A DNA stretch of 12,061 bases from Candidatus Hodarchaeum mangrovi (GTDB lineage Archaea > Asgardarchaeota > Heimdallarchaeia > Hodarchaeales > Hodarchaeaceae). The notes beneath the pieces were generated by a model. The model did not search any database. It was not told the origin of the DNA and was given only the letters and a program-made list of their open reading frames with translations. Location: positions 1-12,061 of the forward strand of contig JAEOUE010000059.1 of assembly GCA_016839515.1 (NCBI GenBank), read 5' to 3'. The position numbers and the translations under genes were made by a program. How positions within the stretch are numbered: the stretch's first letter is position 1; every line of letters starts with the position of its first letter. This document shows, piece after piece, positions 406 through 11,379 of this stretch.

Positions 406-2586
406 CTACCCAAATAGTGGGATAGTTTGCTGAGAATCGATTCCAATACGTCTACGGAATTGTGATTCTTGATTTTCATACCACTTCATCATTTCTTGAG
501 TACATGAAGAATGCACTCGGGAAAGTGCAGCCTCAAAATGTCTCCACTCAACGAATTCACGTTCCTCTCGAAGAGCAAGCATTCCTGCTTCTCGACATAT
601 TGCTTCTAGGTCAGCACCAACATAAAATTCGGTTTCTTTCGCCAATCTATCAAGATTTACATCTTTAGAAAGAGGCATTTCATTTGTATGGATTTCAAGA
701 ATGACTTTTCTACTCTGTTCATCTGGTGGAGAAATGTACACAACACGATCAAACCGACCAGGACGTAATAGAGCAGGATCTATCATATCTGGTCTATTTG
801 TGGCAGCAAGTATTACTACATCTCGAAGTGGTTCGATACCGGCTAATTCAGTTAAAAGCTGACTAATTACACGCTCATTTACACCAGATGAATCGCCTGA
901 TCCTCTTCTAGCGGCCACAGCATCAATTTCGTCGAAGAAAATTAATGCTGGAGCGGCGATGCGTGCCTTCCTGAAAACTTCTCGAATAGCTTTTTCACTT
1001 TCTCCCACCCACTTTGATAGCAGCTCAGGACCTTTAACGCTCAAAAAATTCACTTTACTTTCAGTAGCAAGCGCTTTAGCTATTAATGTTTTACCAGTTC
1101 CCGGAGCCCCAAATAAAAGAACTGCACGAGGTGGATTTATACCTAATTGCTTGAATTTTTCCTTCTTCTTTAGGGGCCACTCCACTATTTCAATTAATTC
1201 TTGTTTTATTAAATCCATTCCCCCTATTTCTTCCCATCTAACATTAGGAATTTCTATAAATACTTCTCTGATAGCTGAAGGATGTATTTCTTTCAGAGCA
1301 GCTTCAAAGTGTCGATCTTCAACTTTTAAGTTATCAAGAACAGAAGGTGGAATTGTATCCTCACTTAAATTTATTTCTGGTAAAATCTCTCTCAACTTTT
1401 TCATTGCTGCTTCTCTTCCTAGAGCTGCCAAATCTGCCCCTACAAATCCATGTGTTATTACTGCAAGTTTTTCAATATCGACCTCTTCTATGCCTGGCAT
1501 TCTTCTAGTATGGATTTGTAAGATCTCTAATCTTTCATTTTTATCTGGAACTCCAATTTCTATTTCACGATCGAAACGTCCAGGTCTTCGTAATGCAGGA
1601 TCCACTGCGTTAGGACGATTAGTAGCACCAATAACAATTGTTTCTCCCCGACTCTCTAAACCATCCATTAAAGCTAAAATTTGTGCTACAACTCTTCTTT
1701 CAACTTCTCCTGTTACTTCCTCACGTTTAGGAGCGATTGCGTCAATTTCATCAATGAATATAATGCTGGGAGCATTATCTTCAGCTTCTTTAAAGATATC
1801 ACGTAATCTTTGTTCGCTTTCTCCATAGAATTTAGACATAATTTCAGGCCCTTGAATAGGTATAAAATGAGCTTCTGATTCGTTAGCCACTGCTTTAGCG
1901 ATTAAAGTTTTACCTGTACCAGGTGGACCATGTAATAAAACTCCTTTTGGTGGATCAATTCCTAATTTTTTAAACAATTCTGGATGTTTTAATGGTAACT
2001 CTACCATTTCACGAATTTTTTGAATTGCTTCTGATAACCCACCTATATCCTCATAACTTACTCCAGGCATGCCAGTTTCCATTTCAGAAACAGGTTTTTC
2101 TGAAACATTGAGCTTCGTTGTGTCGGTAATTAGAACAATTTCAGTTGGGGTTGTAGCATTTACGATAAAAGGAATTGAACGGCCTAAGATTGGGATTAAA
2201 ACAGTATCATTTTTAGATACAGGATAACCGAGGAGTTTTCGTTTGACAAAGGCTTCAAATCCATAATCTAAGGAAATTTGGCGTGTCGGAGCAATATTCA
2301 CAGTCTTAGCTACTTTTATTTGTGCTTTTCGAATACGTACATTTTCTTCCAATGAAACCTTGGCATTTCGTCGAATTATACCATCCATTCTAACAATTCC
2401 TGCCCCTTGATCTTCAATATATGCTGGCCAAGCAATTGCACCAGTTTTTTGTCGTCCTCTAATCTCGACAACGTCTCCTGTAGTAATTCCAATCTCTCGC
2501 ATGTTAATATCATCCATGCGTATTTTTCCCCGACCAACATCTCGTTGCCTAGCTTCAGCTACTTTCAACATTACTTCCTTTGACAA
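406..2586 (-). CDS. cdc48: Cdc48/p97/VCP family AAA+ ATPase (N domain + D1 + D2)
   Basis: N-domain start [20 protein letters not shown]1 has Walker A GPPGTGKT, Walker B IIFIDEID, pore loop MSKFYGESE and [15 protein letters not shown]2 has [25 protein letters not shown] and [10 protein letters not shown]. The track start (GTG 2646) adds 20 non-homologous residues over a TATA-like tract. TTG at 2586, preceded by AGGTTGA, is preferred; ATG at 2571 is an alternative. Confidence 0.97.
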
Positions 2587-2756
2587 ATTTCTCAACCTGC
2601 TTGTGGATCTGAAGACATCAAATATACTATAATAGTATAAATTCACTGTTACTTTAAATTTAATTCTAATTTATTTCGTCAATATTTAAGGATTTATGAT
2701 ATGAAACTCAATATTCATCCTTCCCCACTGGATTCCACTCCGAATTGATTTATTTA

Positions 2757-3044
2757 TTAATAATCTATAATCGTTTGACGCTCAATTTCACAGTTATCCA
2801 CATCATCAAGTTCAAGAAGACGATCCTCAAACAATTGTAGAGTTGCTGTTCCTTCATCTGAATCAGACGTTTTCACATATAGCTTTATGGCAATTAAACC
2901 AAAAAAAAGAGGTTCTTCTTCTCTCTTCAATATCTCGATCTCAAGTCCACTAATTAAGTCTTCTTGGGCTCGTTTAACAATTGCTTCTCTATCTACTTCT
3001 GGTGAAGTAGGAATAACCTTCAATATTGATAAAACATTTGACAT
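2757..3044 (-). CDS. ef1b: Archaeal translation elongation factor 1-beta
   Basis: 95 aa, acidic. Carries N-terminal V..LKVIP.SPEVD and the signature EEPLFFGLIAIKL (aEF-1beta EP(I/L)AFGL motif). It sits next to the Zn-ribbon gene, as is typical in archaea. Confidence 0.93.
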   Translation of the reverse strand: MSNVLSILKVIPTSPEVDREAIVKRAQEDLISGLEIEILKREEEPLFFGLIAIKLYVKTSDSDEGTATLQLFEDRLLELDDVDNCEIERQTIIDY

Positions 3045-3108: not shown

Positions 3109-3291
3109 TTAAGGCCCCTCAAATTCACAATTTGGACATTTATATCTGTTACCCAGTTTTCGACAGCGTTCACAACGAATTATTGTGATCATTCCACAAT
3201 TTGGACATAGAAATTTAGTTGTACCATGTTCACTGGGCATAACCGCAACTTGACAAGGATTACATCTCTGCATTCGGATGGTTTCACTCAT
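3109..3291 (-). CDS. Small double Zn-ribbon protein (DUF1610 / HVO_2753-like, predicted RNA-binding)
   Basis: 60 aa with four CxxC pairs (CNPC, CPNC, CERC, CPNC) and the family C-terminus YKCPNCEFEGP. An SD-like GAGG lies upstream, and the gene is in its canonical position before ef1b. Confidence 0.92.
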   Translation of the reverse strand: MSETIRMQRCNPCQVAVMPSEHGTTKFLCPNCGMITIIRCERCRKLGNRYKCPNCEFEGP

Positions 3292-3955: not shown

Positions 3956-4103
3956 TATTTACACAAATTTTATTTCTATGTTTCAAAAACGTAAATTTCT
4001 TATTTCTACGAAATTTAAAAAAGTTTAATAATTCCTTAAAAGGTCATTCATTAATAGTCAAGTCATAATACCTCGATCAATAATCTAGACATAATAGGTG
4101 ATT

Positions 4104-4565
4104 ATGAAATTGACTCTTAAAGAAACTAATTTGATTTTAAGGACAATAAAATGTCCAACAGGTATGGAACCAATTTGTATCCTTGATCCAGATCACCCTT
4201 GTTGTGAAGACATACCTAGAGAAACCATTGGTTTTGATAATGGAGAATTAATTCGTCAAGGAAATTCTGCGATTGTTTCACTTAAAATTTCTTTTAATGA
4301 TCCTGTGGAAGAATTTATTTTTGAAAGAATAAGAAACGAATTGTGGAGAGAACCAGGTTCAAAAGTTAAAGTGATTCGTGCTCCTGAAGAAGGGTATGCT
4401 ATATCATTTTTTTTAAATACTGAAATGGTTAAGACCAAAGAACAAAGAGAAGCTTTAATAACATATTGGATGAATTTTGAAGTTAATTTGAGACAAGTTC
4501 TTACTGATGGTAAAATGGTTATTAATAAATTTGTTCGGAGTCGATCAGATATTTGTCGTTTCTGA
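4104..4565 (+). CDS. ARPC4-like protein (homolog of Arp2/3 complex subunit 4, p20-Arc)
   Basis: NSAIVSLKISFNDPVEEFIFERIRNELWREPGSKVKVIRAPEEGYAISF aligns ungapped with human ARPC4 as recalled ([49 protein letters not shown]). Identities are NS..VS, D..E and R.P.EGY.ISF. The C-terminal long helix (F...L...L...KMVINKFVR vs F...I...I...KLSVNARAR) also matches, and the size is similar. ATG 4104 follows SD AGGTGAT (the track uses GTG 4098). Confidence 0.82.
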   Translation: MKLTLKETNLILRTIKCPTGMEPICILDPDHPCCEDIPRETIGFDNGELIRQGNSAIVSLKISFNDPVEEFIFERIRNELWREPGSKVKVIRAPEEGYAISFFLNTEMVKTKEQREALITYWMNFEVNLRQVLTDGKMVINKFVRSRSDICRF

Positions 4566-6171: not shown

Positions 6172-7650
6172 ATGCTCTGGTCAAGACACATTCCATTGAG
6201 TATTTTCCTTCTTTTGAGTATTTTAATCAGTGGATTTTGTGTTCTAAATTCCAAAACACTACAAATTATGAATTCTAAGGCACAAGAGGATAAAAACGTT
6301 AATATAGCCATATTTTTTGGATCAGATCGTGATAAAAAGCTTGGAGAGGAGTTGATTAAAGATTTAGATGGGAAAATTTCATTTTATAACATCTCCTCTG
6401 TTCTTACCAATGAATCTTTTGGGTTGGATAATACTAGTATCACAGCTGTTTGGTGGTTGAATGAACTCCTTCTTCCAATAGACTTCTCTATTTTTGGAGA
6501 TATAGCCCAATGGATAAAGGAAGGAAGAGGTATATTTATTTTGAATCAATTCTTTCAAAAAACGCCACTTCAAGAATTAAGACAAATAGGTATTGAATCA
6601 TATAGTCCTTTTATTTATCCCTTAAACCAAGATGAAACACAACTTGACCTAAAATTAAACAAAGACGCCCAATCAATGTTAAACATTAGTTTAGAAGAAA
6701 TAGAATTCAATGGTAGCTGCGGATGGGTACAGCTAAATAATCAAACAACAATACTGGCAGAAATTCCTTTACCAATAGAAATTCCTCTGAATAATCATCT
6801 TACATCTGGAATATGGTTACACGGATCTAAAATTGTCGTAGGAAGTTTTTCTCTAAGATTTGATCAAGCAATAAATAGTATGTATTCCCTTCTCGGAATC
6901 CATAATGTAATGGAATATACAATAATCGACATCATCCGACAATCAGCTCTTCTTTCTATTTCAGATATACCTACCGGAGCACATCTTCAATTAACCGGAT
7001 TTGAATATATATTTAATGTTGCTATATTGTCTATTGGGATAATTTTCGCAATATTTCTATCAATAAAACTAGGAATCCTCTCTAAGCTGAATGAGCTAAT
7101 TTTTGGTTTATTTACTGGTTTTATTTTCTTTATCGCTCATGTTACCTATTCACCTCAGAGAAGAAGAATCAGTGAGGAAGAATTACTAGATAATGAGCTA
7201 AGAGGATCAATTGTCGATTATCTAGAATTAAAAGGAGGGCAAGGAGCTCATCTCAGAGAAATTCAAAGGGAATTAGGCTGTGGAATCTCTACCCTACTTT
7301 GGCATTTACAAGCACTGGATGATTTTAATTTTGTAACCCATGAAAAAATTGGAAAATACCATATTTTCTATATTACAGGAGAAAAATCTATTCAAACTTC
7401 AGAAATAGCGTTAGCATTGAAAAGTGATGTAGCAAAAGATTTATGTAGATTATTAATTAGAAAAAAGAAGCCTGTTTCTTTGTCGAAGATTTCTCGTGAA
7501 ATATCTGTCCATCATTCTAGTGTTCAGCATCATATAAAGAAATTATTGGATTTAGAGGTCATTTTATTAATAAAAGAAAAGAAAAGGTCATATTATGGAG
7601 TCAATCCTAAACAAATTCGTTGGTTAAAAGATCACTTGGAGATTGCGTAA
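6172..7650 (+). CDS. Membrane-anchored transcriptional regulator: signal peptide, extracellular alpha/beta domain, TM region, tandem winged-HTH (COG3398-like)
   Basis: N-terminal hydrophobic signal, then a domain of about 250 aa with six N-x-S/T sequons (NIS, NES, NTS, NIS, NGS, NQT). Hydrophobic segments are YIFNVAILSIGIIFAIFLSI and LIFGLFTGFIFFIAHV. HTH1 is LLDNELRGSIVDYL...HLREIQRELGCGISTLLWHLQAL and HTH2 is SLSKISREISVHHSSVQHHIKKL. SD AGGTG lies upstream. Confidence 0.85.
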   Translation: MLWSRHIPLSIFLLLSILISGFCVLNSKTLQIMNSKAQEDKNVNIAIFFGSDRDKKLGEELIKDLDGKISFYNISSVLTNESFGLDNTSITAVWWLNELLLPIDFSIFGDIAQWIKEGRGIFILNQFFQKTPLQELRQIGIESYSPFIYPLNQDETQLDLKLNKDAQSMLNISLEEIEFNGSCGWVQLNNQTTILAEIPLPIEIPLNNHLTSGIWLHGSKIVVGSFSLRFDQAINSMYSLLGIHNVMEYTIIDIIRQSALLSISDIPTGAHLQLTGFEYIFNVAILSIGIIFAIFLSIKLGILSKLNELIFGLFTGFIFFIAHVTYSPQRRRISEEELLDNELRGSIVDYLELKGGQGAHLREIQRELGCGISTLLWHLQALDDFNFVTHEKIGKYHIFYITGEKSIQTSEIALALKSDVAKDLCRLLIRKKKPVSLSKISREISVHHSSVQHHIKKLLDLEVILLIKEKKRSYYGVNPKQIRWLKDHLEIA

Positions 7651-7652
7651 TA

Positions 7653-9305
7653 ATGAAAAAGAGATCAATATTGATTAAGATTTTTTCTGTTGGATTAATT
7701 TTTGTAGTTGCTACTACAACTGGAATGCTTAAATCAGAAAACTCATTTCAATTCGCTCAGCTGGATTTTTTCTTTTCTGAACCTCTTGCAGGAATAAAAG
7801 CTGATTATAGTCCTGGACTTTCTCCTGAAGAATCATTAAATATTTTTTTTGACATAATAAATAATCAGTCGATCACAACTGGGAATGATACTGATCTACA
7901 GCAGGATAACATTTTCACATTAATGAAGCACTCCAAGTTTGGATTCAATTCATTAGTTTTAGTACTTGAACATATTCGAAGAACACAAACGATTTTCCCT
8001 CTTCCAACCATTGAGTGGAACGCCACAGTACCTTTTATAAAACTTCTCCATCAATTTCAACTTGATTCAGGCGAACAGATCATTATATCTAAGGATATTT
8101 TGGGATTTGCTTTGAAATTAAATAGTAGCGATTTTAAGGCAAATGAGTACCAGTTAGGCTATCCTAATATTCCAATTGAATTTTTAGAATTCTTGATCAC
8201 TGAATTTAGTCAAGGCTTTAGCATAAAACAAGACCAGATTGATACATCTGGGACTATTTTTTCAACAACCTCAAATTGTAGTATCGCTTTGGAAGAGACA
8301 ATGAACGAAGTGGTCGTAACAATTAATTTTGAGAATATAACTTACCTATTTCAAAATAATAGCATTGATCTTGATGAGATTACTCCTAATAAATTTGATC
8401 TATCAAGGAAATTTTTAATTATCCAATTTAAGGATATAGCTTTTACAATTTGTCTTAGAAAATTTAGTCCTAATGAATTAGTAGGCATGGAGACATTTAC
8501 ACAAATATCTATAGGTGATGTATTAAATTTAATAATTAATGAACCATTGCCAACTGAAGGTTCTTGGGACTGGTCTATTGAACATACCATTCAAAAAGAC
8601 TTTCTAGGTTTGATTCCAATAGAAGAAGTTTTATCTTGGTACTCTGGACCTGATATTCAAAAGAGACTAAGCCTTTTTAGTGAGACTCAATTTTCTTTTC
8701 TAACCTCCTATCAAATAGCGATATTGAACGGCACAGAGAGATTAAAGGACAAAATTCTAATTGATAATACTCCTATAACAACATTGGAATTAGCACAAAT
8801 GAATGTACCAGTCAATGAGGAAATCAAAATTAATTATAATGAAATTCCCTATTTTGTAAAAAAATTTATTGGATTTGATTTTGTAAATAAAGATGAGAAT
8901 CAGATTGATCAATTAGAAAGTAATTTGATTGCTCTTTCCCAACAGTCTGGTTTTTCTGGAAATAAATTATTTCTTGAAAAGACAATATTAGTTCGAGAAC
9001 TTATTAGTGAAGGGCTTAAACGATTTATCAATAAACCTGAGATTATACAATTAACTAGTGACCAGCTTTACCAATTATGCGGATTATATTTTACTTATTC
9101 CAGGTTTATTCAAGATTCATCTATTAAATCGTGGGATGGAAAGAAATTCTACTTCAATTCGATAGAAGAGGGAATTAGAAAAATTGGTTTACAAATATCA
9201 GGAAAAAATGATCAAATTACATCATTTAACATTGTTCATTGGATACTTGTTATATTAATTATGATCCCACTTTCAAAAAGACATAGAATTATCCTATTCA
9301 AATAA
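7653..9305 (+). CDS. Secreted, C-terminally anchored surface glycoprotein; diverged paralog of 9622..11379
   Basis: ATG 7653 lies 2 nt after the regulator stop (TAA-TA-ATG) and gives a normal signal peptide MKKRSILIKIFSVGLIFVVATTTG; the track start at 7620 overlaps the regulator. Many sequons (NQS, NDT, NAT, NSS, NCS, NIT, NNS, NGT). The C-terminus is ITSF + hydrophobic helix + KRHR. Confidence 0.75.
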   Translation: MKKRSILIKIFSVGLIFVVATTTGMLKSENSFQFAQLDFFFSEPLAGIKADYSPGLSPEESLNIFFDIINNQSITTGNDTDLQQDNIFTLMKHSKFGFNSLVLVLEHIRRTQTIFPLPTIEWNATVPFIKLLHQFQLDSGEQIIISKDILGFALKLNSSDFKANEYQLGYPNIPIEFLEFLITEFSQGFSIKQDQIDTSGTIFSTTSNCSIALEETMNEVVVTINFENITYLFQNNSIDLDEITPNKFDLSRKFLIIQFKDIAFTICLRKFSPNELVGMETFTQISIGDVLNLIINEPLPTEGSWDWSIEHTIQKDFLGLIPIEEVLSWYSGPDIQKRLSLFSETQFSFLTSYQIAILNGTERLKDKILIDNTPITTLELAQMNVPVNEEIKINYNEIPYFVKKFIGFDFVNKDENQIDQLESNLIALSQQSGFSGNKLFLEKTILVRELISEGLKRFINKPEIIQLTSDQLYQLCGLYFTYSRFIQDSSIKSWDGKKFYFNSIEEGIRKIGLQISGKNDQITSFNIVHWILVILIMIPLSKRHRIILFK

Positions 9306-9621: not shown

Positions 9622-11379
9622 ATGAAAAGGAAAATTCTATTTGGATCTTCAGTAATCCTATTACTGATTATTCTAACCTTTACTTCTCCAGCATCTGCTG
9701 CAACATTTGCAGGTCATGATTTTACAGAAGAATATTTTGCAGTAGAGGTTGATTTAGCTGTTCCTGATCCTAGTCAACCTGATGTCATCTCTGACCTTTT
9801 AAATGCAGCTGCACCTATTGGAGATTCTAATGAAGATTTCGATATCCAATTCTATATGAATTATATGAATAATTCAGGGATCGAAACTGCCTTTTCCGCA
9901 TTAGAAAAGGTAGAATACGATTTGAAATTTGGTGATCTTTTATCAAGCGATGTCAAAACTGTTCTTGAAATGAACCCCACTTATGATGAGGCTTTAGAAG
10001 CAAGTATTTTTCATATTAATGCTACTGCACCGTTTCAACAATTAGTACAACACTATAAAACACCTTGGGCCGAAGATGTCTTTGTTACAAATAACTTCAT
10101 GTCATTGATTGCATACTCTTCAAGTCCTGATGACCAAATTATGGATTCTGGAGATGAAATTTTCATGGGATATACTTTTAGTGCTCAAGAATTAATTGAT
10201 GCAGTAAATACAGTTCTATCAAATAACGGTAAAACTTATCAAATCGGTTATTTTGATTATAATCCTTATTTTGAGAAAACCGCAACAGGCTTTAAATTTG
10301 GGATTGACTATTCAAATATGTTCGTTCTATGGCAAAGTCTCGCTATAAAACCAAGAGGGGTTAATATCTTCGGACAGTCTGTTCCAACTGCTGCTGTTCA
10401 ATCTGAAACAAATGGAATAATCTTTGGACAAGACATTGTTGCAGCAAGTGTTCTTGATTTTCTCAATTTTGAGTATATATTTGAAACTCAAACAATAACT
10501 GGTGCAAATGAATATGTTTTAGGAACCGTAACAACCCATTATAACATTGGAGAAACGAATTTATTAGTTGTGAAAGAAACTAGTATTCCAAGCGAAGAAT
10601 GGAGTTTTAGTCCATTTCTAGCAACCCCTTCCTACACCTTTAATATACCTTCAGTTCTTGTTGGAACTCCTATTCCTATAGCAGGAGTTAATATTCCCTC
10701 ATCTGTAACCATAAATCTTCCTGAATTAGCATTCTATATTGATGATGATGCAAAGACAAGAATGCGCTTGGCAAACAGTTTTGGCCTTACAGTAGCTACC
10801 GCGACAACAACATTTGGTCTTTCAGTTTCTGATCCAACTTATGAAGACAATCTAGATCAAACTACTAGCACAATTGATATTGCAATGGGTGGAAATACCT
10901 TTTTCTTCACAGAATTTACTGGAAAAAACACCTACAAACTGCTAGGTCTTCAAAGTCTGTTTGGTATTGACCCAACAGTTGATCGTCCTGTACATATTCT
11001 TCCCTTTGATCCAGCTGGTTGGATAGTAACCAATGTTGCACATGCTTACTTTGTGGTTGAATTTGCTTTAGCTTATGGATTTACAAAATTCCTAGCTGAA
11101 CAATTATCACCTCAGCTATTTACAATGCCATCTAAAGAACTTTATATCAATTGGGTGTTATACTTTACATTCACTGAATTCCCAGAGTGGTACGGTGGTG
11201 AGATCTTACACGATCCTTCATACTCAGCTGTTGCAGCACTATCTGTTTCAGGAGCTTCGTCTACTACCGCTCCTCCAGGTGGCGATACAACTGGATTAGG
11301 AATACCAGGATTTGAATTAATCTCAGTTCTCCTTGCAATTCCTCCCCTATATGCTTTATACCGTAAAAGACGGCGATAA
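9622..11379 (+). CDS. Cell-surface (candidate S-layer-like) protein with PGF-CTERM-type archaeosortase sorting signal
   Basis: Sec signal peptide MKRKILFGSSVILLLIILTFTSPASA|A. The body is acidic and rich in aromatic residues and Thr, ending W.G..I.HDP. It is followed by an S/T/P/G linker SVSGASSTTAPPGGDTTG and the tripartite tail IPGF-ELISVLLAIPPLYALY-RKRRR. Confidence 0.85.
   Translation: MKRKILFGSSVILLLIILTFTSPASAATFAGHDFTEEYFAVEVDLAVPDPSQPDVISDLLNAAAPIGDSNEDFDIQFYMNYMNNSGIETAFSALEKVEYDLKFGDLLSSDVKTVLEMNPTYDEALEASIFHINATAPFQQLVQHYKTPWAEDVFVTNNFMSLIAYSSSPDDQIMDSGDEIFMGYTFSAQELIDAVNTVLSNNGKTYQIGYFDYNPYFEKTATGFKFGIDYSNMFVLWQSLAIKPRGVNIFGQSVPTAAVQSETNGIIFGQDIVAASVLDFLNFEYIFETQTITGANEYVLGTVTTHYNIGETNLLVVKETSIPSEEWSFSPFLATPSYTFNIPSVLVGTPIPIAGVNIPSSVTINLPELAFYIDDDAKTRMRLANSFGLTVATATTTFGLSVSDPTYEDNLDQTTSTIDIAMGGNTFFFTEFTGKNTYKLLGLQSLFGIDPTVDRPVHILPFDPAGWIVTNVAHAYFVVEFALAYGFTKFLAEQLSPQLFTMPSKELYINWVLYFTFTEFPEWYGGEILHDPSYSAVAALSVSGASSTTAPPGGDTTGLGIPGFELISVLLAIPPLYALYRKRRR

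Follow-up and report, generated by a model that had tools for sequence, protein, structure and literature searches.

An archaeal ARPC4-family protein in a Hodarchaeales genome and its possible relation to actin

Among the questions surrounding how eukaryotic cells arose is the origin of the seven-subunit Arp2/3 complex. Within the complex, the ARPC2/ARPC4 pair is described in the available text of one source as the structural core and the part that chiefly holds the mother filament (PMC9894260). A stretch of 12,061 nucleotides from Candidatus Hodarchaeum mangrovi (contig JAEOUE010000059.1 of assembly GCA_016839515.1, hereafter the window) contains a reading frame that an earlier sequence-only reading had taken for a stand-alone archaeal homolog of ARPC4, possibly homodimerising into a forerunner of the clamp that binds Asgard actin filaments. 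The locus raises the question of whether the gene truly belongs to the ARPC4 family and, if it does, what the encoded protein might do in such an archaeon. The features of the gene are as follows:

4097..4101, plus strand: GGTGA, Shine-Dalgarno-like, 8 nt upstream of TTG 4110 and 2 nt upstream of ATG 4104, read from the sequence
4104..4565, plus strand: ARPC4-like coding sequence, 153 aa from ATG 4104, from the list of open reading frames and its translation
4152..4205, plus strand: Cys/His cluster, putative metal site (C17, C25, D28, H31, C33, C34), residues 17-34, from conservation in relatives
4263..4409, plus strand: conserved ARPC4 core, residues 54-102 (NSxxVS ... DxxE ... RxPxEGYxISF), within the alpha/beta domain, where it forms strands and a helix, from an ungapped alignment and the model
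4437..4556, plus strand: long C-terminal helix, residues 112-151, with K137, N141, and R145, from the model and an alignment

Membership of the ARPC4 family

The Pfam ARPC4 model (PF05856) matches the protein at 31.8 bits, above its gathering cut-off of 22.2 (E 1.3e-7), with residues 54-146 lying on profile positions 68-159 of 167. The same model reached 30.7 bits in a six-frame search of the genome and matched none of 14 control genomes. The P34-Arc model (ARPC2, PF04045), which the sequence-only reading had named alongside it, gave no signal in the protein, and the relation to ARPC2 is seen by fold. The 49-residue ungapped core match noted earlier is real, since residues 54-102 align without gaps to residues 68-116 of bovine ARPC4, the whole ungapped run extends to 52 residues, and the NSxxVS, DxxE, and RxPxEGYxISF motifs are all present. 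A search of the PDB with the single sequence found ARPC4 at E 0.16 only, whereas a profile built from 24 archaeal relatives matched bovine ARPC4 (1k8k_F) at E 4.8e-6 and Schizosaccharomyces pombe ARPC4 (3dwl_F) at E 3.8e-4. Run over 1.84 billion representatives, the archaeal profile found 27 proteins at E ≤ 1e-3; after five short fragments were left out, 22 of these were scanned with Pfam, and the ARPC4 model was matched by 16 at E ≤ 0.01, 15 of them above the cut-off. Detection is also reciprocal, as the archaeal profile recovers three canonical ARPC4 sequences (P0098-P0100) at E 3e-4 to 1e-3, which score 134-192 bits against PF05856 and are probably eukaryotic, the library carrying no names.

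The predicted structure points in the same direction. The AlphaFold2 model, built on the 24-sequence alignment, has a pLDDT of 88.3 and a pTM of 0.79, and it places a coil-like N-terminus (residues 1-38) before three strands, a helix (67-82), two further strands, and a final helix (112-151), which bears out the long C-terminal helix expected from the sequence. In architecture, the protein consists of one globular alpha/beta domain with a C-terminal helix of ∼40 residues. In a Foldseek search of the PDB, where the earlier reading had suggested looking for Arp2/3 structures, ARPC4 chains fill the best nine rows (E 3.3e-7 to 2.6e-5, TM 0.67-0.70), and ARPC2 chains follow in rows 10-30 (E 2.9e-4 to 8.3e-3). 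Similarly, VIA-align superposes 148-149 of the 153 residues on ARPC4 chains (Z 13.2-15.1, rmsd 2.7-3.3 Å), and gives Z 6.1-9.8 for residues ∼116-275 of ARPC2, with unrelated folds at Z ≤ 5.4. The homology extends over the entire protein, which is nearer to ARPC4 than to ARPC2. With the sequence matches and the model taken together, homology of the archaeal protein to ARPC4 is almost certain, and the gene truly belongs to the ARPC4 family as one of its archaeal members.

Compared with eukaryotic ARPC4 (p20-Arc; chain F of 1K8K, 3DWL, 6W17, and 9M64), the archaeal protein has the same fold across its full length and shares the core motifs NS, DxxE, and PxEGYxISF, together with the long C-terminal helix carrying equivalents of K150, N154, and R158. 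It differs in sequence identity, which is only 13-18%, and in an N-terminal Cys/His cluster that the canonical form does not have. Eukaryotic ARPC2 (p34-Arc) matches more weakly than ARPC4; the shared fold lies in its second alpha/beta domain and C-terminal helix (residues ∼116-275), and there are two such domains in ARPC2 but one in the archaeal protein. Horizontal transfer from a eukaryote was considered as a source of the gene and rejected, because the family is deep and diverse in Asgard archaea and its identity to canonical ARPC4 is so low.

By sequence, the gene belongs to the Asgard eukaryotic-signature protein family annotated as 'ARP2/3 complex subunit 4', which was already described when the first Asgard genomes were published. 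For example, the accessible text of one paper reports Arp2/3 subunit 4 homologues in Asgard and Heimdall genomes (PMC7444086), and in the available part of another, 'Arp2/3 complex subunit 4' is listed among Asgard actin-binding proteins (PMC7522288), in agreement with the sequence-only reading, which had mentioned ARPC4-like domains in a few Asgard genomes. Putative ARP2/3 homologues are mentioned for Hodarchaeales in an excerpt of a further paper (PMC12077186), and ARPC4 is counted among catalogue-matched clusters in the visible portion of a 2026 preprint (bioRxiv 10.64898/2026.10.28.762692). In those sections of a 2024 review of actin evolution that are accessible, the only Asgard regulators named are profilin and gelsolin (PMC12050087). 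A literature search covering article text found neither a functional or structural study of an archaeal ARPC4-like protein nor a mention of its cysteine cluster. The gene is a real and ordinary member of a known, uncharacterised Asgard family and not a new kind of thing.

The reading frame, which stops at 4563-4565, can open at GTG 4098 (155 aa) or TTG 4110 (151 aa) as well as at ATG 4104, from which residues are numbered here. In 13 relatives compared, the frame begins at the equivalent of TTG 4110, with TTG in ten, ATG in two, and GTG in one (for L004, whose compared sequence opened two codons further in, the TTG was taken from the alignment of eight relatives); a GGTGAG lies ∼6-7 nt upstream of the start in five of eight relatives aligned, with GATGAG or GATGAA in two more; and the profile match of the relatives to the gene begins at 4110. 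These starts, the spacing of GGTGA, and the beginning of the profile match suggest that translation may in fact begin at 4110, for a protein of 151 aa, and the choice among the starts leaves all other findings on the protein unaffected. The gene is under purifying selection, with a median dN/dS of 0.11 from the 40 of 91 pairs with a usable dS, the remaining 51 being saturated or undefined. NCBIfam models gave no match to the protein, and an Rfam search of the window returned no family. A bacterial-type promoter scan of the window found 10 sites against 8.0 ± 3.2 expected, the model being bacterial and the host archaeal, and a bacterial-type terminator scan found none, a result that is uninformative for an archaeon. 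Among 23 sequencing runs, none is an RNA run listed as containing the stretch, whereas 20 DNA runs from seven studies contain it.

Arp2/3 subunits in the genome and spread among Asgard archaea

The host genome (4.0 Mb in 348 contigs, 91% complete) contains one copy of the ARPC4-like gene, and no paralogue is found by the archaeal ARPC4 profile at E ≤ 10. At E ≤ 1, the 91%-complete genome has no match to ARPC2 (PF04045), for which the control genomes are also silent, and none to ARPC3 or ARPC5 (PF04062, PF04699), the control for PF04699 likewise being silent. Actin (PF00022) has a single match, a protein of 380 aa on another contig (contig 41, 1474-2616 of the extracted locus L002), so that, at 91% completeness, no Arp2 or Arp3 gene in addition to actin is detected. 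There are six matches to the gelsolin domain and none to the profilin Pfam models, for which the controls are silent too. Because ARPC2, ARPC3, and ARPC5 are undetected and only one actin-family gene is detected, in contrast to eukaryotic Arp2/3, the ARPC4-like protein is most unlikely to work within an Arp2/3 complex of seven parts. The earlier description of the gene as stand-alone holds in this sense (one copy, no paralogue, and no ARPC2, ARPC3, or ARPC5 match), to be read with the completeness of 91% and the silence of some controls. In a separate comparison, the actin of this genome matched 9wc4_A, a solved structure deposited as 'HC1 actin', at E 1e-213.

The search with the archaeal protein returned 74 relatives at E ≤ 1e-3, 69 of them already annotated with PF05856, and the full-length ones are 60-90% identical to it. 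The named close relatives are Heimdall/Hodarchaeales metagenome-assembled genomes, and the host itself falls in the Heimdall group of Asgard archaea (Hodarchaeales-like). Across the phylum, the ARPC4-like match occurs in 68 of 301 sampled genomes and is unevenly spread: it is present in 19 of 20 genomes of the host's own family, in 25 of 29, 3 of 3, 4 of 4, and 6 of 6 genomes of the families f3, f6, f8, and f23, respectively, and in none of 76 and one of 68 genomes of two large Asgard families.

The C-terminal helix and the fused forms

In eukaryotes, ARPC4 touches actin through its C-terminal helix. In the available text on the S. pombe complex, ARPC4 R158 and N154 bond the mother-filament actin residues D80, E83, and T126, with N154 hydrogen-bonding E83 and T126, and ARPC4 R55 pairs with actin E99 (PMC10918085). 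In the profile alignment, S. pombe K150, N154, and R158 fall on K137, N141, and R145 of the archaeal protein, all three of which are invariant in 24 close relatives. Among 35 diverse archaeal members, N141 and R145 are each kept in 28, and position 137 is Lys or Arg in all 35. A new detail from these alignments is that equivalents of the mother-filament-contacting residues N154 and R158 have been retained in the archaeal protein. The third named contact could not be placed, R55 being outside the aligned region, and its partner position 99 is Ser in the actin of the genome. That actin keeps D80, E83, T126, and E100 (numbered by offset from the alignments), and D80, E83, and T126 are present also in the other aligned actin, 8thx_A. 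To our knowledge, these three residues are near-universal in actins, and for both reasons their retention is weak evidence.

The preferred reading of the protein is an actin-binding and self-pairing mechanism. The protein is predicted to be a small binder of the sides of actin filaments, whose C-terminal helix would present Lys137, Asn141, and Arg145 to actin subdomain 1, the part played in eukaryotic ARPC4 by Lys150, Asn154, and Arg158; with no ARPC2 partner detected, the free helix would pair with that of a second copy, forming a symmetric version of the ARPC2/ARPC4 pair. Self-pairing would be consistent with the genome, in which another protein of this fold was not found, either as a paralogue or as a P34-Arc match. 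A precedent for binding by such a pair is the isolated ARPC2/ARPC4, which according to the accessible text binds filaments with micromolar affinity and provides 60% of the buried mother-filament surface (PMC9894260). Against the mechanism, the gene is too patchy in its distribution for a general actin cofactor, it shares no contig with the actin gene, and the domain is fused to non-actin modules in other lineages. The conserved residues of the helix could also serve a different partner. With these points weighed, the mechanism is put forward tentatively and at well below even confidence.

The fused forms bear on a different reading, in which the protein would be a general adaptor or scaffold without actin contact, that is, a small dimeric ARPC4-fold platform for a protein or peptide, the fold having been recruited to actin later, in eukaryotes. 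In family f8 the ARPC4-like domain lies in frames of 383-394 aa, and one fusion (P0086, 383 aa) has an ATC_hydrolase/V4R-type domain (28.5 bits) in front of it, a module unrelated to actin. Another fused form, of Atabeyarchaeia type (P0097, P0090, and relatives), has a long linker, which is disordered, and a tail of four helices; its model has a pLDDT of 55.9 overall, with residues 272-361 forming four helices at pLDDT 71-89. Pfam found nothing in this tail, and Foldseek gave no match to it at E ≤ 0.001, the best row outside ARPC being the C-terminal domain of Vps28 (2j9w_B; E 0.38, prob 0.99, TMt 0.64, 78 columns). This modelled resemblance may be taken as a weak lead at most, four-helix bundles matching many things, and what the domain is fused to elsewhere is no direct evidence on the unfused protein. 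An adaptor would also fit the patchy spread among Asgard genomes, the lack of any neighbour gene conserved across families, and the next structural neighbours of the model beyond ARPC4 and ARPC2, which are type III secretion chaperones (VIA-align Z ≤ 5.4). Such chaperones are peptide-binding dimers. The retention of N141 and R145, equivalents of two actin contacts, across deep archaeal divergence stands against an adaptor that makes no contact with actin, and this reading is considered possible though rather doubtful.

The cysteine cluster and the gene neighbourhood

The N-terminal region preceding the alpha/beta domain contains a group of conserved cysteines. C17, C25, and C34 are invariant in the 24 close relatives aligned, and among the 35 diverse archaeal members Cys is found in 34 at position 17, in 34 at position 25, in 30 at position 28, and in all 35 at position 34. 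Of the three canonical ARPC4 sequences, P0098 has no Cys at these positions and the other two have gaps. The norm of the Asgard family is four cysteines in the motif C-x(5-11)-C-x2-C-x(2-6)-C, three of which are kept in the protein of the window (C17, C25, and C34). The clade of the window differs from this norm in having the form C-x7-C-x5-H-x-C-C, where the third Cys is replaced by Asp, Glu, or Gln (Asp28 here) and His31 and Cys33 are added. Among 75 close sequences, 47 have the window form, 14 the canonical four Cys, and two are variants, the other 12 being truncated, chimeric, or without the motif; among 22 distant sequences, the corresponding numbers are 0, 17, 1, and 4. A new detail is that the archaeal Cys cluster has been remodelled in the clade of the ARPC4-like gene. 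A metal site is the natural reading of the cluster, which, in the preferred mechanism, probably holds a metal ion that would stiffen the otherwise coil-like first 38 residues.

The same cluster could be given a more active part, as the functional centre of a small metal- or redox-sensing protein in which the ARPC4-like body transmits a change of metal or thiol state. The cysteines are the most conserved archaeal-specific feature of the family, with the near-complete retention counted above (34, 34, 30, and 35 of 35), and the Odin-type fusion brings a cysteine-rich ATC_hydrolase/V4R-type domain to the ARPC4-like domain. In addition, a feature-based search of the ESM Atlas gave only thioredoxin-, glutaredoxin-, and ArsD-like clusters, at 0.76-0.78, which is under the reliable score; the best of these scores (0.78) falls in the range reached by shuffled sequences. 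The clade has swapped one Cys for Asp, Glu, or Gln and gained a His-x-Cys-Cys, a change that fits a tolerant structural site. Four-Cys knuckles are usually structural, which also counts against sensing, and a sensory role is regarded as quite improbable.

Under the preferred actin-binding and self-pairing mechanism, the cluster could be joined with the helix in a single and more specific proposal. A metal-stabilised homodimer with antiparallel C-terminal helices, like those of ARPC2/ARPC4, would use Asn141 and Arg145 to bind Asgard actin filaments along their sides, and would then show, in a present-day organism, what the symmetric ancestor looked like before duplication gave rise to the mother-filament clamp. 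A homodimeric actin clamp may be called a reasonable idea, and the full proposal, with all its parts, is judged unlikely. If a lone archaeal ARPC4-like homodimer did bind actin, it would provide an experimental handle on the first step of Arp2/3 history. Such experiments are favoured by the small size of the protein and by the solved structure of a close relative of its actin, and the near-identical archaeal actin of 9wc4_A is already in hand for binding tests.

The remaining features of the window belong to the neighbourhood of the gene and are as follows:

406-2646, minus strand: CDC48, without an insert
2757-3044, minus strand: aEF-1beta, lying with the zinc-finger gene between CDC48 and the Roadblock gene
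3109-3291, minus strand: HVO_2753-type four-Cys zinc-finger protein, 63.7 bits
3527..3955, plus strand: Roadblock/LC7 gene, upstream of the ARPC4-like gene and co-directional with it, Pfam Robl_LC7 33.8 bits, given as context only
9622-11379, plus strand: secreted protein of 585 aa ending in the sorting signal Heimdall-CTERM (NF045529), 30.1 bits, cut-off 24

The neighbours comprise CDC48, aEF-1beta, the HVO_2753-type zinc finger, Roadblock/LC7, a pilin-like protein, HIT, and the Heimdall-CTERM surface protein. The gene context had been called clearly archaeal, and it is so, as seen from aEF-1beta, CDC48, the HVO_2753-type zinc finger, the archaeal pilin N-terminus of the pilin-like neighbour, and the Heimdall-CTERM protein. 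The order of CDC48, aEF-1beta and zinc finger, and Roadblock is kept in nearly all close relatives.

The Roadblock/LC7 gene, ∼150 nt upstream of the ARPC4-like gene and on the same strand, could form a two-gene module with it, for example as a platform for a small GTPase. It lies upstream in 18 of 20 close-relative loci and is directly adjacent in 17, the exceptions among the 20 being one locus with a 1.8-kb insert, one cut by a contig end, and one without Roadblock. This adjacency is perhaps an inherited order, since the whole 12-kb neighbourhood is syntenic in close relatives, and the intergenic DNA is poorly conserved, with a mean column identity of 41%. Moreover, Roadblock is never a neighbour in 14 loci drawn from five other Asgard families, and family f3 carries an unrelated helical reading frame upstream instead. 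A conserved Roadblock module was rejected on the synteny and on these last two grounds, and any working partnership of the two proteins is very improbable. A new detail is that the Roadblock pairing is a local gene order confined to close relatives.

The upstream reading frame of the Heimdall-class family f3 is of interest in its own right. It encodes a conserved helical protein of 146-166 aa with invariant Trp residues, precedes the ARPC4-like gene on the same strand, and was seen at L025:2023-2460, L026:853-1290, and eight further loci, eight f3 loci being among the 14 compared above. It has no Pfam match, was not found in the genome of the window, and is unrelated to Roadblock, at an hhalign probability of 0.3%, as well as to the ARPC4-like protein, at 1.9%. 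It is a candidate partner of the ARPC4-like protein in family f3.

Two further observations concern other genes of the neighbourhood. Upstream of the gene for the secreted protein, which has no family match outside its sorting signal, are conserved uncharacterised genes at 6172-7650 (transmembrane and HTH) and 7620-9305, whose reading frames overlap by 31 nt. In two relatives, CDC48 is broken by an in-frame insert of ∼498 aa (L016:2223-3716, and at the same place in L018); the translated L016 insert contains LAGLIDADG-like motifs and a C-terminal His-Asn, and by these features it looks like an intein.
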